From NCBI GenBank assembly GCA_015233675.1, contig JADFXH010000012.1:1-57711 (forward strand): a DNA stretch of 57,711 nucleotides, given 5' to 3'. The notes below the pieces were generated by a model. It made no database searches. It saw nothing but the letters and a program-made list of their open reading frames with translations, and was not told where the DNA came from. The position numbers were made by a program, and so were the translations under genes. Shown here one piece after another: positions 10,926-36,525 of the stretch (its first letter is position 1; every line of letters begins with the position of its first letter). The stretch is from Candidatus Omnitrophota bacterium (GTDB lineage Bacteria; Omnitrophota; Gorgyraeia; Zapsychrales; Fredricksoniimonadaceae).

Positions 10926-11037
10926 ACCATTTCTCCTGAAATTCACATTCTAGCTAAAGGGTGCCATATAATAAGGACGCTGTCAAGAGAAGGGCAGCTA
11001 ATGACTAGAAGCTTTTGCGTGCATAAAAGATCTTCAG

Positions 11038-17897: not shown

Positions 17898-17971
17898 TGC
17901 CTTGTCGTCTAATGGTAGGACATGAGATTCTGGATCTCAGTATCATGGTTCGAGTCCATGCGAGGCAACCA
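17898..17971 (+). tRNA. tRNA-Gln(CTG), integration target
   Basis: Acceptor TGCCTTG/CGAGGCA, tgaga-ttCTGga-tctca, TTCGA, CCA. Confidence 0.93.
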
Positions 17972-19438
17972 ATTTGGACAACCCTTCATTTTTGCTAAGA
18001 AAATGTAGGGTTTTTTGTATGCGGCAGTTATAGTTACGTCAAAAAGGGTATAGTTCGAGGCTAATTTTTTTAGGACAATAGCCTTTTCTTCGTGATTTGC
18101 CCTAACATACTGTGGGTACAACAAGTTTGTTAGTTCGAGGGTTTTAACGCCGTCTTCGTAAAAATTAGGGTTAATCTTTTGAGCCTCCACAATTTGGCTG
18201 GCTAAGTCTAGTAAGAGCGTTTTATATTCCGACTCTTTTGATATAAAGACCTCCTCAGCAACTCCACCATCGTATTTGTCGTCATAAAGCCGGTTAAGGC
18301 GATCCTTTACCTTACTGTGCTGGGTTTGAAGCGATTTAAGACGGTTGTCGTGCGCTAGGGACAGGTTTTTACGGTCAAATTCAAGCCCCTCTTTAATCCA
18401 TGAGGCCATGTCTTCGGTAATGATTACCTGCTTAACGGGTTCTTCAAAGAGTTGGGCTAAACGATTCTCTGGGTAATATCCTTTTCCTTCGTGTCTGCCT
18501 TTTGAAAAAGTGCAGTGATAATAAGTATAACGATTATTATTTGGTTTACGCTTCTCTTCCCCCAAGACTTTGCATCCACAATCACCGCAAACCAGAAGAT
18601 TATTAAAGGCAAACTCTTTACGATTGGCTGAGGGATGAAACTTGCCAGTTAAAATTTGTTGGATACGATCAAATAGGGGTTTGGAAATTAAGGGTTCGTG
18701 ACTGCCTTGATAGAGCTTCCCGTGCCAATTAAAGATGCCATAATAAAATGAGTTGTTAAGGATATAGCTCAGGGTGCTTTTGCGGATAGGGTTTCCACGG
18801 GGAGACCGGAAACCATCTTTGTTTAGAATATCTGCGACCATTTGTATTGAATACGTGCCAGAAGCAAAAAGGCCAAAGGCTTTGCGGAGGTGTTCAAAAC
18901 GCTCAGTGTCGATTTCTAATCTTCGGGTTTCCCTATTGTTTTTATAGCCTAGGGGAGCTGTGGCAGGGTATAAACCTTGCTCAGCTTTCTCAACCATTCC
19001 CATTCGAGTTTTGCGAGAAATGTCATTAGACATTTTTTTGGCTACAGCTACTTCAATGTCAAGCATGAAGAGATCATCAGGAGTCGAATCTCTATTGTAA
19101 ATCTTGTTCGAGCGGGAAAAGTGAATGGTTTTATTATGATGCTGAACTAGGTCATAGATTTTGAGCTTATCAAAATCATTACGGGTCATCCGATCAAGAA
19201 TATCAAATATGATGTGCTCAACTTCGGGGTGGGCTTTGGCATAGTCGATCATTTGATTAAAGGCCACACGGTCTTTTTTACGATCCCAAGCGGATTCAGA
19301 AACCTTCCATTGTTTGACTATACTAAAGCCTTTGCGCTGGGCATATTCATGCCCCAGCTTTTCTTGAGCATCAAGGGAATATCCCTCCTTTTCTTGCTCT
19401 TTACTGGATACTCGGACATATAAAAGGGCAGTCTTCAT
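17909..19438 (-). CDS. Large serine recombinase; last codons run antisense through tRNA-Gln
   Basis: YVRVSSKEQ catalytic motif, DRMTRN, APLGY, zinc ribbon CGDCG...YYHC, coiled coil; ends WLPRMDSNHDTEIQNLMSYH. Confidence 0.93.
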   Translation of the reverse strand: MKTALLYVRVSSKEQEKEGYSLDAQEKLGHEYAQRKGFSIVKQWKVSESAWDRKKDRVAFNQMIDYAKAHPEVEHIIFDILDRMTRNDFDKLKIYDLVQHHNKTIHFSRSNKIYNRDSTPDDLFMLDIEVAVAKKMSNDISRKTRMGMVEKAEQGLYPATAPLGYKNNRETRRLEIDTERFEHLRKAFGLFASGTYSIQMVADILNKDGFRSPRGNPIRKSTLSYILNNSFYYGIFNWHGKLYQGSHEPLISKPLFDRIQQILTGKFHPSANRKEFAFNNLLVCGDCGCKVLGEEKRKPNNNRYTYYHCTFSKGRHEGKGYYPENRLAQLFEEPVKQVIITEDMASWIKEGLEFDRKNLSLAHDNRLKSLQTQHSKVKDRLNRLYDDKYDGGVAEEVFISKESEYKTLLLDLASQIVEAQKINPNFYEDGVKTLELTNLLYPQYVRANHEEKAIVLKKLASNYTLFDVTITAAYKKPYIFLAKMKGCPNWLPRMDSNHDTEIQNLMSYH

Positions 19439-19611
19439 TTATTTTTTAGCAACTTCTCTATGTGGTAAGTTTGTATTTTGTTTGGTTGCGATTTTCCATT
19501 CAACCATCGGTTGACGGTAGAGAAGGCAACATTAAGTTTTTCAGCAAGCTCTTCCTGGGAAATTTTATTTTCTAATCTGTAGGTTTCTAGGTGGTCAATT
19601 AGATTTGTCAT
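19435..19611 (-). CDS. XRE-family HTH protein (58 aa, not in the ORF track)
   Basis: MTNLIDHLETYRLENKISQEELAEKLNVAFSTVNRWLNGKSQP; ATGA overlap with the recombinase start. Confidence 0.85.
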   Translation of the reverse strand: MTNLIDHLETYRLENKISQEELAEKLNVAFSTVNRWLNGKSQPNKIQTYHIEKLLKNK

Positions 19612-19654
19612 GGTTTAATCCTTTCTTGCAGAATATAGCGTTTAGTTTTAACGG

Positions 19655-20743
19655 TCAAGTTCTATTTTTAATGAGTTCACTAACCCTCTGAGCGATCTGT
19701 TCTGTCTGTTCCTCCTGTCTTGGTCTATTAAGTAAATTTCTTATTATCTCACCCTGACGATATTCCTCTACATATCCATAGCTAGAGAAAGTTGTTGAAA
19801 CATGGTCATGACCTAAGTTTTGACTCCACGCTTTAAAGTCTTCGGGGGTCTTGCAGAGCGTTTCCCCCAGACGGACAAGCGTTTTGCGAAACAAATGGGG
19901 AGAGGAATATTCTAGCCCAGTCTTTTCAAAGGCTTCTTTAAATATTCCCCGCATTTGATTTGCCGATTGCCAGCACACAGGCTCTATCCCAACACTTGTA
20001 AAGCAGTTGTTTTTATCTAAGCCAATCTTTGTGCGGGGGAATAAGGGGTCATTGATTCCATAGAGTTTTTCTTTAATCAGATAGTTTGCCCAATCCTTGA
20101 CAATTACCTTGATGTCCTCACCAACGGGGAAGAAATAGGTATAAATCGTTTTGCTGAATTTGGTATTTACCTCACCGCCGATTTGTTCAACAAGCTCATC
20201 TTCAAGTTTAAGGTGCTTTAACTTTAGGGAGACTATTGCGCTGTCTCTTATACAGGTAAGAAAGGTAAAGGCCACGATTGCACGGTTACGGCGTTCTATG
20301 TCCGTATTGGCTGGCATGGAAAAGATAACTTGCCTGATTTGCTCTGGTGTCGGCACGGCTTCCCTTTTGGGGGTTTGAGCGATTCTTGTATCCTTTTCGG
20401 ATAGATTGAAGTATTCAATCTCACGAATATCAATGTGGCGGAAGCCTTTTTGGTAAGCCAGCCATTTAAAGAAGTCTTTTAAGTGGCGAAGGGTTGAAAA
20501 AAGCGTAGATTTGCTTAAAGGTTCATGGGACAAGACAGCTTTTGTTTCGGCCAGATGTTTCTTAAAGGCAATCGCCTTTTGTTTGTTAAAAGATTTAAAG
20601 TCTTGAAATTTGGTATAAATTTCATAGCGGGTCATGGCTTGGCGGATATTATCAATGGAGTTCTGGCTTTTCTGGTTGGCTTCTTTTTGCCATTCAAAAT
20701 AAATACGCTTAACTCGCTCGTTGGAGGGGTTGAATTTTGTCAT
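19655..20743 (-). CDS. Tyrosine recombinase
   Basis: Catalytic set R (CIRDSA), K (TKFSK), HxxR (PHLFRK), LGH, Y (SSYG). Confidence 0.9.
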   Translation of the reverse strand: MTKFNPSNERVKRIYFEWQKEANQKSQNSIDNIRQAMTRYEIYTKFQDFKSFNKQKAIAFKKHLAETKAVLSHEPLSKSTLFSTLRHLKDFFKWLAYQKGFRHIDIREIEYFNLSEKDTRIAQTPKREAVPTPEQIRQVIFSMPANTDIERRNRAIVAFTFLTCIRDSAIVSLKLKHLKLEDELVEQIGGEVNTKFSKTIYTYFFPVGEDIKVIVKDWANYLIKEKLYGINDPLFPRTKIGLDKNNCFTSVGIEPVCWQSANQMRGIFKEAFEKTGLEYSSPHLFRKTLVRLGETLCKTPEDFKAWSQNLGHDHVSTTFSSYGYVEEYRQGEIIRNLLNRPRQEEQTEQIAQRVSELIKNRT

Positions 20744-21228
20744 GTTCCTGTCACCTCATTCTTGTCAGTGTTATAGATAGGGGAATTAGACCCAGATAAG
20801 TGTTCATGGTGTATTTTTTGAACCACAAAAATTTTGTGCAATTCATCTAATTTTTTAGGGGAGGATATTTTGTTAAGAGGGGTATTACATTGAACACAAA
20901 GGCCAACTATCATAAGGCGTTTTTCATTTAGGAATTTAATATCAACCACGTTTTCCCAACTGGTGCGGGGTACTCTGCACTTCATACAAAAGAACTCATT
21001 TGGCTGGCAATGCCTTTTTCGGCCACCTTGCCGTTTATCCAGAAATTCTTTTAGATGGAATCCCATAACAAAGAATGGCTTGAGATCATCAATACGGGGC
21101 AATCCTTGCGTGTACCACTCATGAACGGTTCTCTTGTGGACGCCGAATAAGGTCACTATGTCCTGGGTGGAATAGGAAAGGGTCAATTTAATGTGGTGCG
21201 TGTTGTAATTTCTTTTTCTCTTCGGCAT
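20740..21228 (-). CDS. MerR/excisionase-like HTH plus C4 zinc ribbon protein
   Basis: YSTQDIVTLFGVHKRTVHEWYTQGLP; CMKC...CVQC; overlaps the tyrosine recombinase start. Confidence 0.7.
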   Translation of the reverse strand: MPKRKRNYNTHHIKLTLSYSTQDIVTLFGVHKRTVHEWYTQGLPRIDDLKPFFVMGFHLKEFLDKRQGGRKRHCQPNEFFCMKCRVPRTSWENVVDIKFLNEKRLMIVGLCVQCNTPLNKISSPKKLDELHKIFVVQKIHHEHLSGSNSPIYNTDKNEVTGT

Positions 21229-21229
21229 T

Positions 21230-21583
21230 TTATAGCTCGAATATCCTGTCGGTTGCTATGATTTTGTGGGCGAGTTTTTGTTCAGCCTTTTTAATCCAGT
21301 TGCCGTTTAAATCACGTCGGCGTTTCCTTTTAGTTCCTAGAGCCAGGATTTTGGGTAAATCAGCTTTAGGGAAGTCCAGTAGCCATAGAGGGTCATCGGT
21401 GCTCAGTTCGTGCTCTATTAGGCTTTTAGATTTAACTAGGGAGGCAAATTTTGATGACCATGTTGATAGTCTAAAATGAGTTTTACAAAGATCAGGAGGG
21501 GAGGGGTAGATTTCCCCATAGTCAATTAAACAAAAAAGGTCTCCAAGCGCATCCTTCCAAACCAAATGTTGAGGAATTTTCAT
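21230..21583 (-). CDS. Hypothetical protein
   Basis: 117 aa, tightly packed in the island operon. Confidence 0.6.
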   Translation of the reverse strand: MKIPQHLVWKDALGDLFCLIDYGEIYPSPPDLCKTHFRLSTWSSKFASLVKSKSLIEHELSTDDPLWLLDFPKADLPKILALGTKRKRRRDLNGNWIKKAEQKLAHKIIATDRIFEL

Positions 21584-21759
21584 GGGATGGTTTCCCCGTG
21601 ATCTTTTTGGTTGGATTTTTTCAACTCAAGCAGGTAGGAATAAAGGCCAATTACATTGTCTGCAATCTCTTGGGCATCCGCCAATGTTAATGGCTCGGGA
21701 CTGTACGGTTGCCAGAGCTTAATCGTCTTTTCAAGGTATTCTTTGGGGTATTTTGCCAT
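21580..21759 (-). CDS. Small hypothetical helical protein
   Basis: MAKYPKEYLEKTIKLWQPYSPEPLTLADAQEIADNV; 4-nt overlap with the next gene; start 21759 preferred. Confidence 0.65.
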   Translation of the reverse strand: MAKYPKEYLEKTIKLWQPYSPEPLTLADAQEIADNVIGLYSYLLELKKSNQKDHGETIP

Positions 21760-21911
21760 ATAATCACGTTGGTTGAAATACAACGCCTTTAACCTATATG
21801 GCGACAAGTCGCAGTTTTCCCAAAGAATTTTTAGTTTGAATTTAAAAATTGATAAAGATTTTTAGAGGGGGCGAAGGGTTTGTCACGTGACAAATCGATT
21901 TGTCACGCTTG

Positions 21912-22886
21912 TTAAGAGTTAAATTGGATTCGGCAGGTGTAAGCGCCTTCTGATTTGTAGGGGAAGAAAGCGTCTTCGTTAATTTGGAAGTATTTTTGTA
22001 GGGTCTCAGAAAGTCGTTGTTTCTTCTTTTTTATTGTATCGTTGGCTTGAGGGCTATCCCAAGAAATTTGGCCGCTTTCTTTGGACAGGTATTCTAACAG
22101 CGACCACTGAGCATTAGGGGAAAGAGTTCGCTTGTCTTCAAAACCCATTTCTTTGTAATGTGCCACATATTTCTCAGTGCCGATTTTGATTTCGACATTA
22201 TTGCTATCTTTAAACGTCAGGGTAATGTTTTCCCATTTTGTCGGCTTAAAAGACTGGGAGAATTTTGTTGGCGGATCATTGGAAAGGTTTTTCGTCTCAA
22301 GAAGATCGGTTCGTTGTGATCGTGTTTTATAGGCTATAGCTACTTCCTTTTTGAAGTCGGTAAACTCTTCGATATTAACAATTATTGCGATTGTATCGAG
22401 TTCGGGGACGATTTTGGCGTAAGAAATAACAAGCTCCCTCTCTAAAAAGTCCAGAGCGTCTTTACGGAAGTTCGCCATAATTCTTGAATTTCCTATAATA
22501 TGGCTACTCATCAGGGGGAATTTATCAATATTAAGCGAATCAATTTTTATTGTAACCTTTTCAGAGGGGTTCATTTGTAGCTGGTCGTTAATGTCGGTTA
22601 TCAAATTGTATATTTTTTCAAGGTTTAAAGGGCTTAAATCATTCAAACTGGTATCTCTCTGAAAAACATATCCGGCATACCAATTATCAAAAGAATCAAG
22701 TATTGTTAGATGGAAACGAAGAGGGTCTTGACGGACGCCCACTGATATAGCGTTGGGTCTGCTGGGGGGATGGTAGTCTCTGGGGGAGTGGTCTTTTAAA
22801 ACTTTTTCTGCTAGTTCCAGCCAATATATGATGCTCTCTATATGCTCAAGAGGGATTTGTTGCAATGTAGGCAAGTGTCTATCCAA
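21912..22886 (-). CDS. Hypothetical protein with a C-terminal wHTH-like DNA-binding region
   Basis: QWSLLEYLSKESGQISW...KKKKQRLSETLQKYF; the frame stays open upstream to 23084. Confidence 0.65.
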   Translation of the reverse strand: MDRHLPTLQQIPLEHIESIIYWLELAEKVLKDHSPRDYHPPSRPNAISVGVRQDPLRFHLTILDSFDNWYAGYVFQRDTSLNDLSPLNLEKIYNLITDINDQLQMNPSEKVTIKIDSLNIDKFPLMSSHIIGNSRIMANFRKDALDFLERELVISYAKIVPELDTIAIIVNIEEFTDFKKEVAIAYKTRSQRTDLLETKNLSNDPPTKFSQSFKPTKWENITLTFKDSNNVEIKIGTEKYVAHYKEMGFEDKRTLSPNAQWSLLEYLSKESGQISWDSPQANDTIKKKKQRLSETLQKYFQINEDAFFPYKSEGAYTCRIQFNS

Positions 22887-23224
22887 TAAAATACGAACTC
22901 CCTCAGATTTGCCGTGTAAAGCTGTGTCAAGTAGGCTAGGGGCGGGGATTTCAACTTGAAAAGCAAGAGCAAGAAGATCAGGCTCTGGCGGAGTGATCGG
23001 ATTGTTTTTATATTCTTGCCGTATTGCCTGAATTACCAGACTGAACTCATTCTTAGAATAGCTTTTCGTAGTCTTCTCCCTTCTTTATATTGATTTCCAT
23101 ATTATAGCAAAGTATAATGCCTCACAATAAGATTTAGTTACTGAACCGGAGCAAAAGGAGGGTAATAACCCAAGCCATAAGGCTTAAAACACATATATAG
23201 GAGCACCGCTTTTCCTATAAAAAA

Positions 23225-23309
23225 CCAACTTGTCAGAGGAAAAGACTGTGTCCCGACGCACTTCCGTGCGTTCGGGGCAGGCGGTCTTTCGCTTTTACTG
23301 ACAAGTTGG
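23225..23309 (+). other. 85-nt multi-stem hairpin in island A
   Basis: ccaacttgtcag/ctgacaagttgg perfect 12 bp, aaagac/gtcttt, tgtccc/ggggca, gacgcac-ttcc-gtgcgtt. Confidence 0.75.
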
Positions 23310-23330
23310 GCGATGAGACTTAAAAATGCT

Positions 23331-23375
23331 TGCCCCTTTTTTATTTTTTAGGGGAAGCCTAAATAAAAAGGGGCA
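23331..23375 (+). promoter_or_regulatory. Hairpin pairing over the ribosome-binding region of the 323-aa gene
   Basis: tgcccctttttt-attt / aaataaaaaggggca ends immediately before GTG 23376. Confidence 0.55.
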
Positions 23376-24347
23376 GTGATGAACAAACTTGTCTTTTTAA
23401 CCCTTTCAGTTATAACCTCTTTTCTTTTTTTGAACAAACCCCTCTTTGCTTCCGATCAAGAAATAGCCGACCAAATTCAAGGTTTAAGGGATGATTTACG
23501 GCAACAAGCAGTGGATGACGAACAAGAAAAACAAAGAGAGGAATCAAATCAACGCCTAAAAAAGGCTATTGATGATTGGGGAGCTAAGGAAAAAGCAAAA
23601 ATTGATTTAGAAATTCAAAAGGAAAGATCAATAGAAGACCAACAAGATCAAGAGGCTATAAAAAATGCTGAAATAAATGAAAAGGCTCAAACAGAAGGGT
23701 ATATAGCCGGAAAGAAAAAAGAATGTGAGGATCATGCTGTTAAGCTGGGCGGAACCCCAAAAGAAGCCGAAGATGATTGTAGGGATGTAGTGGCCTCCAT
23801 AAGAGGTTTAATGGAATCGAAATCCCCCAAAGAGATTGAAGCAGATGAAAAACAAAAAGAACTCGAGGCTTCACTGAGCGATCTCGATAATCAGTTGGCC
23901 AGTGGAAGAATTTCACAAAGTGAACATGACGGTAAAGAAAAAATGCTACTTGATGATAATAGGAAATGGCAACGGTCTGAAAGTGAATCGTTGACCACGG
24001 CTACCAATAAATTGAAAGAAGATATAGCAGACTCAAAAGCCAGGAGGTTAAATAATTCTTTAAAAAGTACCGACAAGTTGTTGTCCGTTGGAAAGGTTAC
24101 CCAAACTGAGCATGATGTACTAAAAGAAACATTGCTTGCCCCCAACATTCCAGAGGCTGATAGGGAAGCCGTATATGATTTGGTGGGAGCGGTAAATAGA
24201 TATTTGGAATTGGGATGGAAAGAAACGAAGGCGACACAAGCATTGAAGTCAAGAATACTAGACATTGAGGTATCCTCTGGAAAGATAACTAAAGGCCAAT
24301 TTGACGAAGGGAAGATGGAATTGCTCGGGGGTCACGTTACTAAATGA
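23376..24347 (+). CDS. Secreted coiled-coil protein with three SHOCT-like repeats
   Basis: Signal peptide ...PLFA; SGRISQSEHDGKEKMLL, VGKVTQTEHDVLKETLL, SGKITKGQFDEGKMELL. Confidence 0.7.
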   Translation: MMNKLVFLTLSVITSFLFLNKPLFASDQEIADQIQGLRDDLRQQAVDDEQEKQREESNQRLKKAIDDWGAKEKAKIDLEIQKERSIEDQQDQEAIKNAEINEKAQTEGYIAGKKKECEDHAVKLGGTPKEAEDDCRDVVASIRGLMESKSPKEIEADEKQKELEASLSDLDNQLASGRISQSEHDGKEKMLLDDNRKWQRSESESLTTATNKLKEDIADSKARRLNNSLKSTDKLLSVGKVTQTEHDVLKETLLAPNIPEADREAVYDLVGAVNRYLELGWKETKATQALKSRILDIEVSSGKITKGQFDEGKMELLGGHVTK

Positions 24348-24838
24348 GACTAATCTTTTTGATAATGAAAATATTCCGAGTGTGCAATAAATGCAAGTCT
24401 AGGTATTTGCTATTTCATTTAAAGTCGGATTGTAAATTTGCAATAGAGAATTTTCAAGCCCTTAGAGACTTGCTTGTCAAAGCCGCTATTGACGGTCATT
24501 TGGGGGAATCCAATAAAGCCATGTTTGATCTGAGGCTTTCTAAGATAGCTTTCCCATCAGAACAGTTAGATAGAAAAACTAAAGTTTTTGAAGGCACAAG
24601 ATTTTCTAGCGTTCCATTTTTAACAATTCTTTTAATGGTTACCATTGGAACAGCATTGGGTCAAGATAAAGGTGGCTTGATGCAAGGGATAGGAGTGTTC
24701 TTTATTTTTATATGGTTTGTGTTCCTGGGGCGTGGTGGTTTTAATGTGCTTTTTAAACAAATTACCCTTTATGATTTAATGAAGAGGTATAAGTTCAAGG
24801 CAAAAGAAGAGAATTTGAGTTATGAACGTCGCTTTTGA
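24344..24838 (+). CDS. Hypothetical membrane protein
   Basis: Two hydrophobic segments; 4-nt overlap with the upstream gene. Confidence 0.6.
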   Translation: MRLIFLIMKIFRVCNKCKSRYLLFHLKSDCKFAIENFQALRDLLVKAAIDGHLGESNKAMFDLRLSKIAFPSEQLDRKTKVFEGTRFSSVPFLTILLMVTIGTALGQDKGGLMQGIGVFFIFIWFVFLGRGGFNVLFKQITLYDLMKRYKFKAKEENLSYERRF

Positions 24839-25250
24839 ATTTATTTTGATTAACCTGGTGATCTTCGGATCACTTTTTCTGTTTTTACGTTGGGTATGTA
24901 CTCAATCAGCTACATGGAGAAACGTAACGGCTTTTGTTGTTGAGCTGGGATCGGCCTATTCTGCCAGCTTTGTTTTTGATATGCTGGTACAAGCAATCAC
25001 CGGCAGATTGCAGTTTGATAATGTTGTTGCGCCGGTTTGTACATGGTCTGGCATAGCCATTGCTTGTCATTTTTTTGCTAGCGGAACAGCGGTATCAAAA
25101 AAGCCCCTCTATCTTGCCTACCTCATTCTTGGGCTAATAGCTACAGCCGCATGTTTTATTCATACATATAATCTAATAGTCGGCGTGTCTCTATTGGTAA
25201 TCGCTGGGGTTATTGCGTTGATCCCAAGAAATAACAGTCCCCGAATATAA
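24822..25250 (+). CDS. Hypothetical membrane protein
   Basis: About five hydrophobic segments. Confidence 0.6.
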   Translation: MNVAFEFILINLVIFGSLFLFLRWVCTQSATWRNVTAFVVELGSAYSASFVFDMLVQAITGRLQFDNVVAPVCTWSGIAIACHFFASGTAVSKKPLYLAYLILGLIATAACFIHTYNLIVGVSLLVIAGVIALIPRNNSPRI

Positions 25251-25327
25251 ATTATGGATTGATTTTTGAGCGAAATCTGCTTAAACTTACGTTAAGCCGC
25301 TTGGATCAGTTCGTGAGACTCGGTGAA

Positions 25328-25363
25328 AAGCCAGTTGCGAAACTCGTCCAAATGAGGCAACCA
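25328..25363. repeat. attR of island A / left junction of island B
   Basis: GAGGCAACCA identical to the tRNA-Gln 3' end; 25328-25351 matches 27280-27303 at 23/24. Confidence 0.8.
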
Positions 25364-25585
25364 CGTTGGACAAGAGGCCCTTTTGGCGAATATGCTGAAG
25401 GGCTTTTTGTATGTGAGGCAAGGGGTTGCGTCATTAAGGATAACAGCCTTTTCATGGGCGGTTGCCGCAAGATACTGGGAATACAGTAAGTTCATCAGTT
25501 ATTTTACCGTCCATCCTGTCATCAAACAATTTATTGATCCTGTGGGCTGACATTGTCATGTTGTGTTTGAAGCGCGGCAAACACA
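25364..25585 (-). pseudogene. Remnant of a second large serine recombinase C-terminus
   Basis: Fragments LQTQHDNV, RINKLFDDRMDG, NLLYSQY..HEKAVIL, YKKPFSIFAK..CPTWLP align with LQTQHSKV, RLNRLYDDKYDG, NLLYPQY..EEKAIVL, YKKPYIFLAK..CPNWLP. Confidence 0.85.
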
Positions 25586-25668
25586 GAATTAACAAATTTG
25601 ATAGCAGGGAGTAAGAAGTATACTTAACCTAAATTTGGGCACAAATCATTTTTTTACGGAGGAATCCT

Positions 25669-26432
25669 ATGGATGTGACGACAAAGTGGAAAGGCCTCTC
25701 TATTCAAGAAATGCTGGGGAACTCGTGGCGGCTATATCTATAGGGGATCTTTTTTTACAGCCTCAAGCGACAGCCACGAATGGATCGTTCACGCAATCAA
25801 TCCTGATATTTGTTGTATCTACTATCGTGGGCGTAATTTTGACGATATCAGAGTTATATATGTGTTTACTGGTCAGATCGTTAGAACAAAATGACGGGAC
25901 TTCCTGGCAGGATCTGCTGGATACCTCATTAAATAAGATTGGACCGATGATTGGATCGTATATCCCTGTATTTTTCTTTTTCTTGTTGTTTTTTCTGCCC
26001 GGCATAGCTGTTGTTGTATTTCTTCATCCCGATGAATCTACGCAGAAAATTGTGACGACTGGCTGGATGTGGTGCGGAACGGCATATTTTAGTTATAAGT
26101 ACGCTCTTTTACCTACAGTCGTAGCTTACGAGAAACCGGTGTTCATGTCCTACCTAAAGAGAAATGCACAGCTAATCAAGGGATCGTTCTATGATTTTTT
26201 TGGTGCTTATCTGGCGCTGGTCCTGGTTTTGTCCCCTGTCTTTGCTATTTCATTCTTTTCGAGCAGCATCCCTCAGCCATATCAAATGATACTGTCAATA
26301 GTTTCCATTGTCCTCTGGGTTCCTTTAACGCCATTTTGTTTTCACTATTTATATTTTGTATATACCGAGTTGATCCAGAGGGAAAGCAGCCTTCGTGGCA
26401 TTGCACCAGGGAGCGTAGCGCCGACACAATAG
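25669..26432 (+). pseudogene. Multi-pass membrane protein, probably broken near the 5' end
   Basis: GGAGG + ATG 25669 reads MDVTTKWKGLSIQEMLGNSWRLYL then TAG at 25741; the hydrophobic body is in another frame (track ORF 25635..26432). Confidence 0.55.
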
Positions 26433-26708
26433 TAGTTCAAATGCGCTGGCATTGGTCCATACATTAGCCCGGCGAGAGAAAATGTTTATTTACAAATAAT
26501 CAGTTGTCCGTTTTGAAACACTGGTGGATATTATAACTAACATACCTGCCACGCCTCTTGGCTTCGGTCAATGCGCATTTTGGGCAGGTTTTATTGATCT
26601 ACTCCCCGTTTGATGCCTTGTCAAAGGTTTGGTCGGGGTTGTTTTTTTGATTGCACAAGATGAGGGTTTGATATATCCTTTAAGTAAATAGACATTAGGA
26701 GGCTCACT

Positions 26709-26933
26709 ATGCGCAATGAAATTTCTATATCCAATATTTTGAAGCTGGATGTCTCCGAAAGAATCCAGCTGGTGGAAGATGTTTGGGATAGCGTTGCTGC
26801 TGTCCCCGAAGCTATTCCCTTGACAGACAAACAGACAAAAGAGCTGGATCAACGCTTGGCTGCCTACCACAGCAATCCATCAGCCGGATCTCCCTGGAAA
26901 GAAGTCAAACAGAGAATATTGTCCAGAAAATGA
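26709..26933 (+). CDS. Addiction module antitoxin (TIGR02574-like)
   Basis: LKLDVSERIQLVEDVWDSV...ELDQRLAAY...GSPWKEVKQRI; AGGAGG RBS. Confidence 0.88.
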   Translation: MRNEISISNILKLDVSERIQLVEDVWDSVAAVPEAIPLTDKQTKELDQRLAAYHSNPSAGSPWKEVKQRILSRK

Positions 26934-27229
26934 AATACGATCTCATTATTCGACCGGAAGCTGAGCAGGATATGCAAGGCGCTTTTGGCTGGTACGAAGA
27001 TCGTGTTTCAGGGCTTGGCCGAGAGTTTCTGCGTTGTGTGGACGCATCTATAGCTCAAATTAACCGTTCTCCCAAAACACATCCAGTCATATATCAGGAT
27101 ATTCGCAGGACATTGACCCGTCGTTTTCCTTTTGGGGTTTTCTATATTGTAGTTGGTCAAAAGATTATTGTGCTTGCTGTCCTTCATGCACGCAGGGATC
27201 CAAGCATGTGGAAAAGAAGGAAGAATTAA
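26930..27229 (+). CDS. ParE/RelE-family toxin
   Basis: IIRPEAEQDM..A..WYE....GLG.EF, RRFPFGVFY, VLAVLHARRDP; ATGA overlap with the antitoxin. Confidence 0.9.
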   Translation: MKYDLIIRPEAEQDMQGAFGWYEDRVSGLGREFLRCVDASIAQINRSPKTHPVIYQDIRRTLTRRFPFGVFYIVVGQKIIVLAVLHARRDPSMWKRRKN

Positions 27230-27279
27230 CAAGCAGTAAGAAGCTCTGTGGACATGAACTCTTGGGACTCAGGCGAGTC

Positions 27280-27314
27280 AAGCCAGTTGCAAAACTCGTC
27301 CAACAGAGCCAACT
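27280..27314. repeat. attR-like end of island B
   Basis: aagccagttgcaaaactcgtccaa plus gagccaact; the minus strand reads LDEFCNWLDSPESQEFMSTELLTAC*. Confidence 0.7.
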
Positions 27315-27330
27315 TTAACAGTTTTATTGG

Positions 27331-27363
27331 GGCTGTCCGTTTTAAAAATGGACAGCCTTTTTT
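27331..27363 (+). terminator. Intrinsic terminator, probably the displaced tRNA-Gln terminator
   Basis: ggctgtcc-gttttaaaaat-ggacagcc-tttttt. Confidence 0.75.
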
Positions 27364-27399
27364 CTTGTTTTTAACCCAAGAGGTCTTTACAATTAATTC

Positions 27400-29112
27400 A
27401 TGGAATTGCTAAAGAAACGCAGTTTTACCTGGGACCTTTTTTACATCGGACTTATCCTCTTTTTTTCTATCCTTATTTCCTTGCCTCTTTTTAAAGGGCA
27501 ATTTATCTGCAGCAGTGATTACGCCGGGACATTGAGAAACCTTTTAGCCATGAAGCAGTGTTTAGGACATGGCCAGTGGGTGGTACGATGGGTGCCTGAC
27601 CTGTATTTTGGGTACGGTTATCCCCTCTTTAATTTTTATCCTCCGTTATTTTATATTCTGGGAGCTATGATAGCGAATATTGGCGCAGGAATAACCATGG
27701 CCTATGATCTTTCTTTATTTATTATTCTTTTTCTTTCGGGCTGTGCGATGTACCTTTTTGCCCGAGAGCTTTGGGGGAAGCAAGGAGGGTTTGTTTCTGC
27801 GACGGCTTATCTTTTTGCCCCTTATCATATGGTGGACCTTTACATGAAGGCGGCTGGCGCTGAAACCATGTCTTTTATTTTTTTGCCTCTTATTTTATGG
27901 TCTTTTTATAAATTACAGCAAACATCTTTGAAGCGTTACATCGTATACTCGGCCTTATCCTGCGCGGGACTTCTTTTGACGCATAATTGCACAAGCATTA
28001 TTTTCTTTCCTTTGGTGCCTTTTTATATTTTATTGCTTTTTTGGCCGTATTCTTCCTGGCAACGATGGATATCTTTGATGCACAGCTTTCTGGTTTTGGC
28101 GCTGGGAGTTGGATTGGCCGCGTTTTTCTGGCTGCCGGCGTTTGTCGAGAAGAAATTTGTGCACGTGGAATTAATGGGGCAAGGCAATTTAAATTTTAAA
28201 GAAAACTTTGTATATTTTAAGGACTTGATCTCACCTGGTTGGGGCAATAATATGCCTTATTTTGGCAGTCCTCATATGGTTAGCCGTATCGGCATTGTGC
28301 ATGGCCTGTTGGTGTTAATCGTGCTGTTGGGTTTTAAGAAAATTGTTGAGCACAACCCGCGGCTAAATAGACAGATTTTTTTCTTCCTTGCGGCCCTGAC
28401 AGGATCAATCTTTCTTACTATTAATTATTCCATGGTTATTTGGGAGCATATCCGTGTTTTACAGTATTTACAGTTTCCTTTCAGGTTTTTGACTGTTGTT
28501 GTACTTGCGGGCAGTGTTATTGCCGGGGGGGTCGTTTTATGGGTACAGCAGGAGCATCGCTTTAAAGTAATGTTTGTTGCGGTTGTATTGATTTTTTTGA
28601 CAAACTTTTCTTATTGCCACCCGAGAGATACCTTTCCCTGCGACTTAAGGCTTGTCAAGACTGACCCGGGCAAATTTCTTTCCGTATTAGTTCCCCAAGA
28701 TGGAGGGGACTATATTCCGATTTGGGTCAAAAACGGGGTCAAGGGATTACCGAGTTCTATGCCATTACAGAAGCTACAATCGTTTTCAAAAGAGGGTCAA
28801 GTTATTGATTCTACAAAAAGATCACCTTTACGCTACAGGTTCATGGTCCAAGCGCAAAAGGTATCGATATTTTGTTTTAATAGTTTTTATTTTCCAGGAT
28901 GGACGGTAAAAGTGGATGGGCACTATGTAGAAGTTTTAACAGACAATCCTTGGGGGTTCATTATTTTTCCATGTCCTCAGGGTGTCCATAACGTGGATAT
29001 CTATTTTGGGACAACCCCGTTACGCCAAATGGCCAAACGCATCACGATAGGTTCCTTGATTCTGCTGGGGCTGGTCTTTATATTTCCGTTTAGAAAATTT
29101 AATACTGGTTGA
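27400..29112 (+). CDS. Polytopic GT-C-type membrane protein (PTPS-related/YfhO-like)
   Basis: GQWVVRWVPDLYFGYGYPLFNFYPPL, AYLFAPYH, LQFPFRFL, YFPGWTVKVDG. Confidence 0.75.
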   Translation: MELLKKRSFTWDLFYIGLILFFSILISLPLFKGQFICSSDYAGTLRNLLAMKQCLGHGQWVVRWVPDLYFGYGYPLFNFYPPLFYILGAMIANIGAGITMAYDLSLFIILFLSGCAMYLFARELWGKQGGFVSATAYLFAPYHMVDLYMKAAGAETMSFIFLPLILWSFYKLQQTSLKRYIVYSALSCAGLLLTHNCTSIIFFPLVPFYILLLFWPYSSWQRWISLMHSFLVLALGVGLAAFFWLPAFVEKKFVHVELMGQGNLNFKENFVYFKDLISPGWGNNMPYFGSPHMVSRIGIVHGLLVLIVLLGFKKIVEHNPRLNRQIFFFLAALTGSIFLTINYSMVIWEHIRVLQYLQFPFRFLTVVVLAGSVIAGGVVLWVQQEHRFKVMFVAVVLIFLTNFSYCHPRDTFPCDLRLVKTDPGKFLSVLVPQDGGDYIPIWVKNGVKGLPSSMPLQKLQSFSKEGQVIDSTKRSPLRYRFMVQAQKVSIFCFNSFYFPGWTVKVDGHYVEVLTDNPWGFIIFPCPQGVHNVDIYFGTTPLRQMAKRITIGSLILLGLVFIFPFRKFNTG

Positions 29113-29126
29113 TTCTTAGCGAGCGT

Positions 29127-29159
29127 CCCTCTCCCTTTCCCTCCCCTTAAGGGGGAGGG
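29127..29159. repeat. REP-like palindrome
   Basis: ccctctcccttt-CCCTCCCC-ttaag-GGGGAGGG. Confidence 0.6.
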
Positions 29160-29203
29160 AATTTTTTCTTAATACAGACCTGTTACGAAAAATAAAAAAA
29201 CAC

Positions 29204-29232
29204 TTGCAATTTATTTGTTTTTATTTTATACT
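29204..29232 (+). promoter_or_regulatory. Sigma70 promoter of the sulfur amino acid operon
   Basis: TTGCAA, 17 nt spacer, TATACT. Confidence 0.7.
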
Positions 29233-29292
29233 ATACTAACTTGATAGATTTAGATGGGAATGCTTTAGAATATTTTTTGAAAGAAGAAAAAA

Positions 29293-29382
29293 ATGAAAAA
29301 AACTTTTAGCGCTATTTATATGATGATGTGTTGCTATATGGCGATGTGCCGCCTTAGCGGCGGGGGAGGTCTTCCTGTGTGA
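29293..29382 (+). CDS. Met/Cys-rich leader peptide MKKTFSAIYMMMCCYMAMCRLSGGGGLPV
   Basis: 5 Met + 3 Cys in codons 10-19; lies between the promoter and a terminator upstream of metY/cysK. Confidence 0.85.
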   Translation: MKKTFSAIYMMMCCYMAMCRLSGGGGLPV

Positions 29383-29413
29383 CGCATCATTTAACAATTA
29401 GGCATGACGGGAC

Positions 29414-29460
29414 AACCCACTGCTAATACAAGGATAATAAAGCAGCGGGTTTTTTGTTTT
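29414..29460 (+). terminator. Attenuator terminator
   Basis: aacccactgct/agcagcgggtt stem followed by tttttgtttt, upstream of the first structural gene. Confidence 0.8.
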
Positions 29461-29478
29461 ATAAATTTGGAGGACAAA

Positions 29479-29670
29479 ATGAGTAAAAAGCAGAACCAAA
29501 AGAATATTGTGAATGATGCCATTATCAAGGATATTGCGGAAGCTGTCGGATCATTAGAATACGGAATAGTCACAATTAAAGTGCATGAAACTAAGATCAT
29601 TCAAATCGACATTACTGAAAAAAAGCGCTTTGATGATGTCTGGCGCATTGAAGGAGGTGGTGGAATATAG
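29479..29670 (+). CDS. YezD/DUF2292-like small protein with an EGGGGI tail
   Basis: GSLEYGIVTIKVHETKIIQIDITEKKRF; GGAGG RBS; ATG at 29479. Confidence 0.8.
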   Translation: MSKKQNQKNIVNDAIIKDIAEAVGSLEYGIVTIKVHETKIIQIDITEKKRFDDVWRIEGGGGI

Positions 29671-29754
29671 ACATCTTATATTAGAGAAGTTTGCTGTAAA
29701 TTGACCGTACAAAACGGCAATGTTAAAAAAATCAATAAAAAATAAAAATCGAAT

Positions 29755-29802
29755 GATTTTACCAGATAACTGGAGAATCCAAGCTAAATCAGGAGGATTC
29801 TT
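29755..29802 (+). promoter_or_regulatory. Overlapping alternative hairpins at the next RBS
   Basis: gattttaccag-ataa-ctggagaatc competes with gagaatcc/ggattctt, which overlaps AGGAGG. Confidence 0.45.
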
Positions 29803-29805
29803 AAA

Positions 29806-30669
29806 ATGAAACACGTAATCAAATTAGCATTAATCGTTTTAGGTGTTATTTTTGCTGGAAATCAGGCTTGGGCAGGACTTCCTTTAAATAACCTGGAAGG
29901 CGTTGGCGGTGTTGCGTTTAATCCGCTGGCGTATCCCGCAGAAGGAGACCCTCTCTATAGTATCGGAGATACCGAGGTCATAAGCAAGCCAAGGTTTGGT
30001 ACATGGTACGCCCGCCTGGAGCAACCAAAGATCGATTGGGGGTCTATTGGGGGTGCCACGACCTTATTTAAGAGATTAGAAGTTTCAGAAGGTTATCAAT
30101 ACATTTCATGGGCGATTCCTGGGAAGGATTTCCATAAGAATAATATTGGGGCCAAACTTGTGTTATTGCCGGAGAATTCTTTTGATACAAAGTTTCTTCC
30201 CGAAATCTCTGTTGGAACGATTTATAAAACAACGAGCGATAAAGTCCTTCGTCAACTGGGATTGCCGACACACGGATCAGGTGAGGATTGGTATGCTGTC
30301 GCGACGAAAACAATCACTCAGCTGCCTTTGCCGGTTGTCCTGTCAGCTGGTGTTCTTTCGTCAGAAGAGGTTGGGACCGGTGTTCTTGGTTTTACAAATG
30401 AAAGAAGAGAAACCGCTTTTGGAAACGTTGATGTTGTTCTGCCGCACAACTTTGCTGTGGGCTATGAATTCAAACAAGGAGAAGAATACAATAATACAAC
30501 ACCAATACATGGAAATGCCAATTATTGGGATGTGCATGTGGCATGGCTGGCGAATAAGAACCTTACTCTTGTTTTGGCCTATACCGATACGGGAAGGTAC
30601 AATCTTGCCCATAATACAAAGTATGGATTGGGAAGCGGGCCTGTTTTAAGCGCGCAATATGCGTTTTAA
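29806..30669 (+). CDS. Outer-membrane beta-barrel protein (DUF3034-like)
   Basis: Signal peptide ...AWA, LEGVGGVAFNPLAY, alternating strands, C-terminal YAF. Confidence 0.6.
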   Translation: MKHVIKLALIVLGVIFAGNQAWAGLPLNNLEGVGGVAFNPLAYPAEGDPLYSIGDTEVISKPRFGTWYARLEQPKIDWGSIGGATTLFKRLEVSEGYQYISWAIPGKDFHKNNIGAKLVLLPENSFDTKFLPEISVGTIYKTTSDKVLRQLGLPTHGSGEDWYAVATKTITQLPLPVVLSAGVLSSEEVGTGVLGFTNERRETAFGNVDVVLPHNFAVGYEFKQGEEYNNTTPIHGNANYWDVHVAWLANKNLTLVLAYTDTGRYNLAHNTKYGLGSGPVLSAQYAF

Positions 30670-30675
30670 AGAATT

Positions 30676-30716
30676 CCCCCTGCCCCTCTCTTTTTTATAA
30701 TGAGAGGGGCAGGGGG
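30676..30716. repeat. Perfect 15-bp inverted repeat inside the operon
   Basis: ccccctgcccctctc-11 nt-gagaggggcaggggg; no U tract after the stem. Confidence 0.8.
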
Positions 30717-30721
30717 CGTAA

Positions 30722-32059
<1,338 letters not shown>

Positions 32060-32068
32060 GAGGGGTTT

Positions 32069-33004
32069 ATGGCAAAAATATTTATAGACATCACTAAAAC
32101 CATTGGCAACACGCCGTTAGTACGGCTAAATCGCATCACCGAAGGCAGTGAGGCAGAGGTGCTGGTAAAACTGGAATCCTTTAATCCGCTTTCAAGCGTT
32201 AAGGACAGGCTCGGAATTGCGCTTATTGAAGATGCTGAAAAAAAAGGACTTCTTAAAAAAGACACAGTCATTATCGAGCCTACCAGCGGCAATACGGGAA
32301 TTGCCTTGGCTTTTATTGCTGCGGCTAAAGGCTACAAATTGATCCTTACTATGCCGGACACCATGAGTCTTGAGCGCAGGCAATTACTTAAGATTTTTGG
32401 AGCTGAGTTGGTCTTGACTGAAGGGTCAAAAGGCATGAAAGGTGCTATTGAAAAAGCCGAGGAACTCGCTCGCAGCACACCTAACAGCTTTGTCCCGCAG
32501 CAATTTAATAACCCTGCTAATCCTGAAATTCACCGCAAGACTACGGCTGAGGAAATTTGGAATGATACTGATGGTAAAGTTGACATCCTGATTTCCGGCA
32601 TAGGAACGGGAGGTACTATTACAGGTGTGGCCGAAGTCATAAAAAAAAGAAAGAAAAGTTTTAAGGCAATTGCCGTCGAGCCTGATGCTTCTCCGGTTTT
32701 GTCCGGGGGTGTTCCCGGGCCGCATAAGATCCAGGGCATAGGTGCCGGGTTCGTGCCCAAGGTTTTAAATCGTGATATCATCGATGAGGTTATCCGCGTT
32801 ACCAATGAAAATGCCGGAGAAACTGCACGTCGTGCCGCTCGTTTGGAAGGCATTCTTGTTGGGATTTCAAGCGGAGCTGCTTTGTGGGCAGGACTCGAGG
32901 TTGCTAAACGCAAAGAAAATAAAGGGAAAACCATTGTTGTGGTATTGCCGGATACCGGCGAACGGTATCTGTCAACATGGCTTTTCCAAGAAGTTAAGGC
33001 ATGA
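32069..33004 (+). CDS. cysK: Cysteine synthase A
   Basis: [52 protein letters not shown]. Confidence 0.96.
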
Positions 33005-33044
33005 CGAGCGGATACTCTTTGAGCTTGATGAAGGGTAATTAATT

Positions 33045-33308
33045 ATGGAAAATAAAAAGTTACGTATTTATTGCCCGAATGGACTTCATTTACGAGAAGC
33101 GGCCCGCGTTGTTACGGCTGCAAGAAAATTTATTTCTAAGATCCAGATTTGGCATAATTCTACCAAAGCCGATACGCATTCAATCCTCGAGGTGTTATTG
33201 TTGGGGGCCCCTCAAAATTCAGAAATCACATTGGTGATAGAAGGGGCGGACGAAAAAGAGGCAATGAATGAATTAATGCAGATATTTCAGGATGGGGGAG
33301 GGATTTAA
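33045..33308 (+). CDS. HPr-like phosphocarrier protein with a C-terminal FQDGGGI tail
   Basis: CPNGLHLREA (His15 equivalent), HSILEVLLLG (Ser46 equivalent), GADEKEAM. Confidence 0.85.
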   Translation: MENKKLRIYCPNGLHLREAARVVTAARKFISKIQIWHNSTKADTHSILEVLLLGAPQNSEITLVIEGADEKEAMNELMQIFQDGGGI

Positions 33309-33745
33309 ATAGAATACGTTGGTGCTTTTTTAACTGATTCAACCTGATCTGCCAGATCAGCGAAAGTGATATGATCTACAACATCGGAAGTTAATTTAAA
33401 CACCTTTTGCCAAATTGGCCGGAATGCGCATTTGTATAAGTCTCCGCAAGCGGTGTATTTTTTGTTGACGCAGGCAATAGGTTCGAGCGGACCATCGACA
33501 AATCGTACAACTTCTCCTAAAGTTATATTTTGGGGCGGCCTGGAAAGTAAATAGCCGCCAACCTTGCCTCGGCGGCTTTCAATAAAACCGCCTTTTTTGA
33601 GTTCTAATAAAATTTGTTCGAGAAATTTAGTAGGAGCATCAATGCGACTTGCAATTGCAGGAATGGTAACTAATCCTTCGTGATAGTGAAGCGCTAAATC
33701 TAGAATTGCTTTTAACGCGTAGTCGCCTTTATGAGTAATTTTCAT
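33305..33745 (-). CDS. Rrf2-family regulator (IscR/CymR-like)
   Basis: KGDYALKAILDLA, FLEQILLELKKGG, SRRGKVGGYLL, three Cys, ends PTYSI. Confidence 0.92.
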   Translation of the reverse strand: MKITHKGDYALKAILDLALHYHEGLVTIPAIASRIDAPTKFLEQILLELKKGGFIESRRGKVGGYLLSRPPQNITLGEVVRFVDGPLEPIACVNKKYTACGDLYKCAFRPIWQKVFKLTSDVVDHITFADLADQVESVKKAPTYSI

Positions 33746-33777
33746 ATATTATCCTATAATCTCCATTGACATAATGT

Positions 33778-33805
33778 AGTATAAAATATTTTTTGTTTTA
33801 GTCAA
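33778..33805 (-). promoter_or_regulatory. Sigma70 promoter for the Rrf2 gene
   Basis: Minus strand TTGACT, 16 nt spacer, TATACT. Confidence 0.6.
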
Positions 33806-33853
33806 GGCAGTATTTTTAATTTGCTTTTTTAAAAAATATGTGTTAAGCTTTTA

Positions 33854-33869
33854 ATGTAAAGCTTTACAT
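33854..33869. promoter_or_regulatory. Palindromic operator 1 (LacI-like)
   Basis: ATGTAAAGCTTTACAT, perfect 16 bp, just downstream of TTGCTT-17-TAAGCT (33821-33849). Confidence 0.75.
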
Positions 33870-33913
33870 AATAAAAAGAGTCAGTGATTTTTAGGGGGTA
33901 TTTTTTTATTAAG

Positions 33914-33935
33914 TTTATGTAAAGCTTTACATAAA
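33914..33935. promoter_or_regulatory. Palindromic operator 2 (LacI-like)
   Basis: TTTATGTAAAGCTTTACATAAA, perfect 22 bp; same core as operator 1. Confidence 0.75.
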
Positions 33936-33953
33936 TAACAAAGAGAGGACTTT

Positions 33954-35975: not shown

Positions 35976-36003
35976 AATACCAACAACCATAAGGGGGTAA
36001 GAT

Positions 36004-36495
36004 ATGAGAAAACTGGCTTTGATTACAGCTATTTTATTTTTAACGGGGCATGTTCAGGGGATAGCTCAGGACCAGCCAAAGGGGCAAACGCCTTCCGGCG
36101 TTCAGTCGGCTGATTTTGGCGATTTTTCATCCAGCACCCTGACCACGAAAGCCTGGGGAGCATTGGCTGGCAATGATGTCAAGATGGTAGAAATTTATGT
36201 CAATAAAACTGTAGAGATGTATGGGGCCAAGGCCAAAGAGATGCAGGCCTCATTAAAGGAATATCCGTATGAATCAAAAGAAAAAATTCACAGTTTTTGG
36301 GCTTTGAACGATGTGGGAACCAGTCTTTATATTTTGGGTTTGGCCTATCAGAACGCCGGCCGCAAAGACGATGCCCGCAAGGCGTACAAGCAAGTGGTAG
36401 ATGAGTATCTCTATGCTCAATGCTGGGATATCAAGGGTTGGTTCTGGAAACCAGCGGAAGCGGCACAACAGAAGCTGGCGGCATTGGACTCTTAA
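36004..36495 (+). CDS. Secreted helical (TPR-like) protein
   Basis: Signal peptide; LTTKAWGAL, WALNDVGT, QCWDIKGWFWKPAEAA. Confidence 0.7.
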   Translation: MRKLALITAILFLTGHVQGIAQDQPKGQTPSGVQSADFGDFSSSTLTTKAWGALAGNDVKMVEIYVNKTVEMYGAKAKEMQASLKEYPYESKEKIHSFWALNDVGTSLYILGLAYQNAGRKDDARKAYKQVVDEYLYAQCWDIKGWFWKPAEAAQQKLAALDS

Positions 36496-36525
36496 AGCGT
36501 CATCGGATTTGTTCCGCAAACTCGG

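Follow-up and report, generated by a model that had tools for sequence, protein, structure and literature searches.

The SCC and SCCmec elements form composite islands at orfX (rlmH) of staphylococci and are mobilised by the large serine recombinases (LSRs) CcrAB or CcrC. They are also mentioned in the description of the Dehalococcoides islands at ssrA, the gene for transfer-messenger RNA (tmRNA), which use DsiB, a CcrB-like LSR (McMurdie et al. 2011, PMC3146451). The LSR islands stacked at that tmRNA gene appear to be the closest precedent, and a close one, for the locus described here. We analysed a 57,711-nucleotide (nt) stretch, called the window, which is positions 1 to 57,711 of contig JADFXH010000012.1 (assembly GCA_015233675.1) from a Candidatus Omnitrophota bacterium. 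In our reading, two LSR-inserted islands of one family, A and B, lie head to tail at the 3′ end of its tRNA-Gln(CTG), with the tRNA-distal island B most likely inserted first. We give this overall reading of the sequence a probability of about 0.7.

A three-step accretion model, exactly the one proposed here, is described in a review that also covers the accretion and cis-mobilisable element (CIME) systems ICESt1/ICESt3 and the tandems of integrative and mobilisable elements (Pavlovic 2004, Bellanger 2011, reviewed in PMC5704250). The Islander paper of 2015 catalogued 125 tandem arrays of at least two islands with tyrosine integrases, and stated that no targeting of tRNA genes by serine recombinases was known (PMC4383910). 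In a non-exhaustive look at the literature for a tRNA-targeting LSR clade, this statement and the tmRNA case (PMC3146451) were all that came up.

The target, the islands and their junctions lie in the window as follows.

17898 to 17971, plus strand: tRNA-Gln(CTG), the integration target (ARAGORN; Rfam tRNA, 59 bits)
17954 to 17979, plus strand: junction 1, attL of island A, with tRNA arm GTCCATGC, core GAGGCAACCA and P′ arm ATTTGGAC
17972 to 25361: island A, intact, with an LSR of 509 amino acids
25328 to 25361, plus strand: P arm of island A (its right end), 91–100% identical to P arms in relatives
25346 to 25371, plus strand: junction 2, a hybrid of P(A), core and P′(B) in attP-like form, GTCCAAAT GAGGCAACCA CGTTGGAC
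25362 to 27313: island B, with both ends, an LSR stump, one membrane gene and a ParE-type toxin–antitoxin (TA) pair
27280 to 27313, plus strand: junction 3, attR of island B plus the P arm of B, GTCCAACA GAGCCAAC then TTTAACAG

The first-pass annotation, made from the letters of the window, had proposed tandem accretion of two related islands with att-like junctions at 17962, 25354 and 27306. The att cores lie exactly there, GAGGCAACCA at the first two positions and GAGCCAAC at the third, all on the plus strand and in the same register. At least three directly oriented att sites at one target gene, bounding adjacent segments, are the mark of accretion, and this is the arrangement found. The gene gltX lies directly before tRNA-Gln, and this adjacency is kept in every congener checked.

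The sequences on either side of the cores pair the junctions. To the left of junction 2, the 24-mer AAGCCAGTTGCGAAACTCGTCCAA (25328–25351) occurs again at 27280–27303 with 23 of 24 positions matching, as had been noticed before; 100 dinucleotide-preserving shuffles gave no match with up to 3 mismatches allowed. The wider repeat left of junctions 2 and 3, the P arm, is 34 nt at 88% identity. To the right of junctions 1 and 2 there is a common P′ arm, CCA-NN-TTGGACAA. Past it, similarity stays at roughly 70% for a further 140 nt or so (two blocks, one of 68 nt with 72% and one of 67 nt with 70%, offset by 27 nt). The attL of junction 1 recurs in ENA contig L032, and junction 3 (P arm, core and flank) has the form of two other attR sites, one at the end of the single BP4.bin41 island and one at the end of the island in congener G010.

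For each island, attP was rebuilt as its right-end P arm joined to its left-end P′ arm. The sites so derived from the junctions contain inverted repeats of 7–8 nt around a spacer of 10–12 nt, namely GTCCAAAT-N10-ATTTGGAC in attP(A) and GTCCAAC-N12-GTTGGAC in attP(B). Position 7 of the repeat covaries, being A:T in A and C:G in B, so that the left half of junction 2 is assigned to A and its right half to B. The same arm pairs are found outside the window, the B-type pair in the G010 island and the A-type pair in BP4.bin41. Two related islands in tandem at tRNA-Gln, the core of the earlier proposal, are thus borne out by the arm pairing together with the B-type island of G010 and the non-core genes of B.

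The point of exchange can be narrowed down. The B-type P arm reads GAGCC where the tRNA reads GAGGC, and this diagnostic G-to-C difference places the crossover rightward of the changed base. In the window and in G010 alike, the flanks part after CAA, which confines the crossover to CAA, and the symmetry centre of attP falls on CA. The crossover most likely lies within the CAA of GGCAAC, with CA as the likeliest place. The LSR would recombine attP (P arm, core GAG(G/C)CAACCA, P′ arm with the short inverted repeat) with the tRNA end, and the island would then complete the tRNA with its final bases (ACCA) and bring a hairpin and T-run of its own to the stretch just past it. We infer that island A provides these final bases of the present tRNA-Gln. 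Several congener tRNA-Gln genes end in GGCAATTT or GGCAACTT with the CCA not encoded, and junction 3 (GAGCCAAC-TTT) shares this CCA-less form.

Three genes on the minus strand occupy the tRNA-proximal end of island A.

17909 to 19438, minus strand: LSR of 509 amino acids (aa), with Pfam Resolvase, Recombinase and Zn_ribbon_recom; the open reading frame (ORF) runs through the att core into the tRNA
19435 to 19611, minus strand: HTH_3-type regulator of 58 aa, overlapping the LSR start codon and matching PHROG transcriptional regulator/repressor families
19655 to 20743, minus strand: tyrosine recombinase of 362 aa (Pfam Phage_integrase; PHROG integrase)

The LSR class is defined by an N-terminal resolvase catalytic domain with the serine nucleophile, then a Recombinase domain and a zinc ribbon, in about 450–700 aa. 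The 509-aa protein has all of these: Resolvase at residues 5–155 (E = 2e-19) with the motif YVRVSSKEQ at the N-terminus, Recombinase PF07508 (E = 1e-16) and zinc ribbon PF13408 (26.2 bits; cut-off 25.3). Its homologues include one of 509 aa at 92% identity and more than 2800 relatives at E ≤ 1e-20. Since the ORF crosses the att core, integration exchanges its last ~20 residues. In the integrated form the tail is encoded by the tRNA reverse complement (…WLPRMDSNHDTEIQNLMSYH, 17909–18020); in the rebuilt circular form it would be encoded by the P arm (…WLPHLDEFRNWLFTESHELIQAA, 25292–25361) and the protein would have 512 aa.

Two recombinases are coresident in island A, and the position of the LSR gene bears on which of them integrates it. 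In nine of nine related loci, namely ENA contig L032 and all eight genome-contig loci whose LSR is at least 50% identical over the greater part of its length, the LSR 3′ end overlaps or abuts a convergent tRNA gene for Gln, Asn or His. Host names at these loci are Brocadia, Zixibacteria and Omnitrophota, apart from unclassified metagenome-assembled genomes (MAGs). The LSR rather than the tyrosine recombinase is, on these comparisons, the tRNA-adjacent gene across phyla and likely the integrase. Close LSR homologues from other phyla likewise overlap tRNA 3′ ends. The tyrosine recombinase is conserved beside the LSR, at 70% identity in the G010 island and at the matching position in L032 and L033, and the L032 counterpart of the 58-aa regulator carries Pfam HTH_3.

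Island B retains little between its ends.

25362 to 25541, minus strand: LSR stump of B (tblastn and frame translations), with the P′(B) hairpin and T-run at about 25370–25410 on the plus strand
25635 to 26432, plus strand: ORF of 265 aa, apparently a membrane protein
26709 to 27229, plus strand: type II TA pair, an Unstab_antitox antitoxin of 74 aa and a ParE-family toxin of 99 aa, intact, at the right end of B

A recombinase remnant straight after junction 2, as the intact gene stands straight after junction 1, had been claimed and is confirmed. The stump consists of two out-of-frame pieces that correspond to LSR residues ~380–399 (25482–25541) and 436–495 (25346–25498). The second piece has a 9-codon deletion, and the first ~375 LSR codons are gone. 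The stump is of the G010 type: judged by eye, its identity to the C-terminus of the G010 LSR comes to about 86%, compared with 26 of 51 aligned residues for the island A LSR. Island B retains both P′ and P arms while its recombinase is reduced to two out-of-frame fragments, which is what distinguishes a remnant. It is best explained, and in our view probably, as a deletion derivative of a G010-like island, a CIME-like remnant.

The genes left in B do not belong to the conserved core; membership of the core is what the first-pass annotation would have counted against its account. The 265-aa gene has no match in Pfam, PHROG or PADLOC, and a search in 16 congeners found it in none of them. The TA pair occurs in few congeners and always beside att or tRNA fragments. 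Its small antitoxin and toxin genes are adjacent, overlap by 4 nt and match in family (PF09720, E = 6e-19; PF05016, E = 5e-7), as expected of a type II ParE/RelE system. The pair may be a reason for the persistence of island B. We also considered the pair as a native neighbour of the tRNA, as it lies 640 nt past the tRNA in congener G007 (locus L024). There, tRNA-Gln fragments follow the pair, so it belongs to another small island remnant, and this idea was dropped.

An intact island of the B type appears to be present in G010 at the same tRNA-Gln. Its contig C42 has the tRNA-Gln, then a P′ arm 92.5% identical to the left end of B, an intact LSR, the tyrosine recombinase and the HTH gene. Its contig C82 has the same TA pair (95–97% aa identity) just before a B-type P arm with the diagnostic GAGCC, then unrelated DNA with an ECF sigma factor gene 2.3 kb on. 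Between the window and G010, the ends of island B are 89–92% identical in DNA and gltX and the sigma gene 76–77%. The island ends are more alike than these genes, so the island type has moved horizontally.

Both types also occur alone. The B type stands by itself in G010. At the tRNA-Gln of L032 there is a left end of the A type, and P arms of that type occupy the terminal position in BP4.bin41, G008 and G016. The BP4.bin41 MAG has one 9.2-kb island of the family at tRNA-Gln, with an attR made of P arm, GGCAAC and TTTTATT. P arms 91–100% identical to that of A end islands or remnants in G009, G016, G008, G005 and BP4.bin41. Decay is common: A-like P arms with no LSR at their side follow tRNA-Gln in G008, G016 and, twice in succession, G005, and others lie on two further G009 contigs. 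The window's own genome was searched for another copy of the islands and none was found.

The history that we favour would begin with the integration of B, which then decayed. A would next have entered the tRNA-proximal hybrid site, composed of the tRNA arm and the P′ arm of B, leaving junction 2 as P(A)-P′(B). This order is the most probable one, at somewhat better than even odds. B is far more decayed than A. In addition, the tRNA half-site is invariant, whereas at least seven attR sites have differing sequences to the right of the core, so a hybrid that retains the tRNA arm is the likelier target. On these two grounds the B-first order of the first-pass annotation is plausible, but the junctions themselves come out the same from either order.

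Several points weigh against this history. Insertion of A into attL(B) and of B into attR(A) gives three identical junctions, so it is parsimony that orders them. The covariation that divides junction 2 between A and B concerns one position only. The G010 island is split across C42 and C82 and its continuity is inferred, and the genome of the window is a fragmented MAG, 65% complete. The attP(A) pattern of the excised form had no match in the metagenome and viral contigs scanned, and the collections searched contained neither an excision product nor an empty site nor a free attP. A hybrid attL-type site as LSR target is an assumption; to our knowledge, textbook LSRs recombine attP only with attB.

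The reverse order would have A first and B entering the distal junction of A (P(A) plus native flank), with B then losing most of its genes. It predicts exactly the observed junctions 1, 2 and 3, and decay is a weak clock, as one deletion could take at least 1.1 kb of LSR plus its neighbours. We hold it to be unlikely nonetheless: the left half-site of the target would be P-type, sharing only GTCCA and GAGG with the tRNA arm, and the younger element would be the more decayed one, with two frame-disrupted fragments and two internal deletions. Accretion may also have taken place outside this lineage, if an A-B composite built elsewhere was acquired whole by excision and re-integration through junction 1 × junction 3. 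Such transfer after accretion is documented in other systems (PMC5704250) and raised for the Dehalococcoides islands (PMC3146451), and the window is compatible with it. This is rather improbable, as the P-P′ hybrid pattern, in a degenerate scan of 168 genomes of the order, matched only junction 2 of the window and was not found in metagenome or viral collections either. Moreover, A-type P arms elsewhere precede non-island DNA and B-type ends occur without A in G010. Least probable by far is a false joining, during assembly, of an A-bearing strain variant to a variant that bears the B stump. The fragmented state of the MAG would allow it and several congener contigs break exactly at tRNA-Gln, but the variants would share only ~8–11 exact nt at junction 2, far under assembler k-mer sizes, and the contig spans both islands into conserved genes on either side.

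One further alternative leaves the two islands as they are and concerns the DNA beyond them, where the following features lie.

27329 to 27365, plus strand: hairpin (27329–27359) and T-run after junction 3, −21.2 kcal/mol, z = −5.5
27400 to 40175, no strand: 12.9-kb non-syntenic block between junction 3 and the ECF sigma factor gene
40255 to 40821, plus strand: ECF (extracytoplasmic function) sigma factor gene, conserved to the right of tRNA-Gln in congeners, whose proteins are 73–82% identical

The first-pass annotation took the terminator at 27331 for the original one of the tRNA and predicted an empty locus with tRNA-Gln directly followed by 27315–27365. Neither is upheld. In at least 11 congeners a homologue of the ECF sigma gene and the same downstream gene order lie only 0.17–8.4 kb past tRNA-Gln, on one contig in ten of them (G004, G011, G006, G014, G015, G005, G009, G012, G003 and G007) and by way of C82 in G010. 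The spacer is 0.17 kb in G015, 0.3 kb in G004, 0.55 kb in G009, 0.63 kb in G014 and 1.3 kb in G011, and 22.3 kb in the window. Since the sigma gene is the conserved right neighbour, the 12.9 kb past junction 3 is variable too. Formally, at the genus level, a different sequence thus follows the tRNA, an outcome that the annotation had itself set against its account. Neither relatives nor public contigs yielded the predicted sequence: a blastn comparison of the entire locus with 30 relatives left 27315–27400 unmatched, and a scan of metagenome and genome contigs for the hairpin sequence after junction 3 gave 0 matches.

We therefore give about an even chance to the view that 27314–40254 was also acquired or rearranged later, possibly from eroded older islands, with the ancestral flank near the ECF sigma gene and the 27331 hairpin not the original terminator. 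Besides the distances in the congeners, it is favoured by the first gene past junction 3, which has only 34–43% homologues in 7 of 16 congeners and none near tRNA-Gln, by metY-cysK, which elsewhere stands in different contexts and is present twice, and by the other element types that use tRNA-Gln (repeats in G004, G006, G012 and G014). Against it, the block has no recombinase, no further att site or tRNA fragment and an unremarkable base composition, and the TTTAA-type sequence past junction 3 resembles native post-tRNA sequences of congeners. The resemblance means that this may be a real tRNA flank at the arrival of B, even if not ancestral to the genus, and the 27331 hairpin may well be, at most, part of that flank. 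Judged by synteny, 27314–40254 is non-syntenic, variable, lineage-specific DNA and the hot spot is 22 kb long (17972–40254), not 9.4 kb.

The block itself encodes a PTPS-related membrane protein, DUF3034, metY-cysK-HPr, Rrf2, a GH2-like protein, TPR, LacI, SPFH and TPR proteins. A third recognisable LSR-type island was sought in 27.4–40.3 kb and rejected, as neither a P arm nor a P′ arm nor a tRNA 3′ fragment turned up when this stretch was searched for them. The metY-cysK genes (30767–33004) are 87–96% identical in protein to some congener copies, compared with 75–87% for gltX. They are often present twice in differing contexts (G004 C49/C150, G003 C22/C33, G014 C18), with a second copy on C11 of the window's own genome. 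By these comparisons metY-cysK behaves like a mobile or exchanged cassette.

The hairpin after junction 3 had also been noted as a strong terminator. The hairpin and T-run are real, but they are unspecific, for junctions 1 and 2 have them as well, and the terminator was rejected as proof of the original flank.

17976 to 18017, plus strand: island-borne hairpin and T-run past the tRNA, inside the LSR 3′ coding end on the opposite strand, −13.2 kcal/mol, z = −2.75

The hairpin and T-run after junction 2, in P′(B), have −22.2 kcal/mol. Like that of A, the post-tRNA hairpin of B (25370–25410) lies within the LSR 3′ coding region on the opposite strand. The stems are AACCCT/AGGGTT in the A type and GCCCTT/AAGGGC in the B type. 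The stems differ while the hairpin is retained in both, which suggests selection for a tRNA terminator overlapping coding sequence.

Other types of element at the same tRNA-Gln leave true tRNA 3′-end repeats. The repeat is 49 nt at 2.3 kb in G006 (L014), about 22 nt at 4.6 kb in G012 (L020) and only ~200 nt away in G004 (L012) and G014 (L015); in G007 (L024), fragments of tRNA-Gln follow the TA pair. As far as sequence can tell, the tRNA-Gln locus is a multi-element hot spot.

Cargo varies among the islands, as seen at L033/L037 (BP4.bin41), L017 (G016), L020 (G012), L024 (G007) and L028 (G010 C82). The BP4.bin41 island (L033/L037) carries an N6_N4 methyltransferase and a ResIII helicase, resembling a restriction-modification-type system. 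Several congener islands carry a homologue (44–49% aa identity) of the 828-aa ORF at 8460–10946 of the window. The remaining genes of island A are as follows.

20740 to 22886, minus strand: four genes (162, 117, 75 and 324 aa), the 162-aa product with a weak HTH
23376 to 25250, plus strand: three cargo ORFs, by eye one secreted coiled-coil protein and two membrane proteins

Neither the four minus-strand genes nor the three plus-strand ones matched a family in Pfam, PHROG or PADLOC. Homologues of the 162- and 75-aa genes exist in the G010 island, and the minus-strand block partly matches L032 and L033 in DNA.

An intergenic gap of island A holds a conserved candidate structured RNA of ~150 nt (23195–23352, plus strand). 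Genomes from other genera and families of the order hold one or two copies at 84–95% identity, and the window's own genome holds one. RNAalifold on six sequences gave 45 pairs, 7 of them with compensatory double changes, and a 3′ hairpin with T-run. Against Rfam at E ≤ 10 there was no convincing family, the best score being 23 bits for a 70-bit cut-off. The genes downstream vary among genomes, so the candidate resembles a free-standing small RNA rather than a leader.

The junctions also invite a tentative idea about the enzyme, which we regard as doubtful. The tRNA-targeting LSR clade might depart from the attP × attB rule by accepting a site made of a tRNA arm and the P′ arm of another island. 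Islands would then stack and junction 2 would stay a live substrate. If this is true, the LSR of island A could excise A alone or take the B stump and the TA pair along, a serine-recombinase form of cis-mobilisation.

The locus offers a natural record of small islands piling up and decaying at one tRNA gene in an uncultured lineage. We know of no gene-transfer systems in this phylum. The case adds to a poorly documented class, the serine-recombinase islands that target tRNA genes, and its defined att arms (P arm, core, P′ arm and CAA crossover) are candidate attP/attB pairs for integration tools.

Compared with the Dehalococcoides ssrA islands, those described here are likewise small and non-conjugative, and they too form a tandem stack where a tRNA-like gene has its 3′ end. 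In both, the integration module is encoded on the reverse strand beside attL and includes an LSR of ~500–540 aa, a likeness to DsiB in layout and size. Some members of the Dehalococcoides arrays have no module and are read as cis-mobilisable remnants, the same trait as seen in B. However, the Dehalococcoides islands target the tmRNA gene, where the direct repeat measures 20 bp and the crossover falls in the T-loop, whereas here the target is a true tRNA with an exact repeat of ~10 nt and a crossover at the acceptor end/discriminator. The partner gene differs too, being a second, small serine recombinase (DsiA) there and a tyrosine recombinase plus a small HTH protein here.

The SCC/SCCmec elements resemble this locus in the stacking by LSRs at the 3′ end of one conserved gene, the reiterated att sites and the members without recombinase. 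They differ in their protein-coding target, paired Ccr recombinases, larger size and resistance cargo. In the accretion and CIME systems of the ICESt1/ICESt3 type, the integrases are tyrosine recombinases, the identical repeats are longer, and excision and cis-mobilisation were shown experimentally; the present system has an LSR and is known from sequence.

As in the Islander-type islands, integration is at the tRNA 3′ end and the island restores the gene. In contrast to them, no more than a few tRNA bases are displaced here, and what recurs at the far end is the P arm of the island itself, not a copy of the tRNA. An Islander island is defined by an intact tRNA and a displaced fragment, and here the P arm shares only GTCCA and GAGGCAA(CCA) with the tRNA. 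Islands whose far ends have no tRNA fragment escape the fragment-based finders. The accretion process is thus already known and the locus serves as an example of it, not a discovery. It is unusual chiefly in its enzyme, a serine rather than a tyrosine recombinase.

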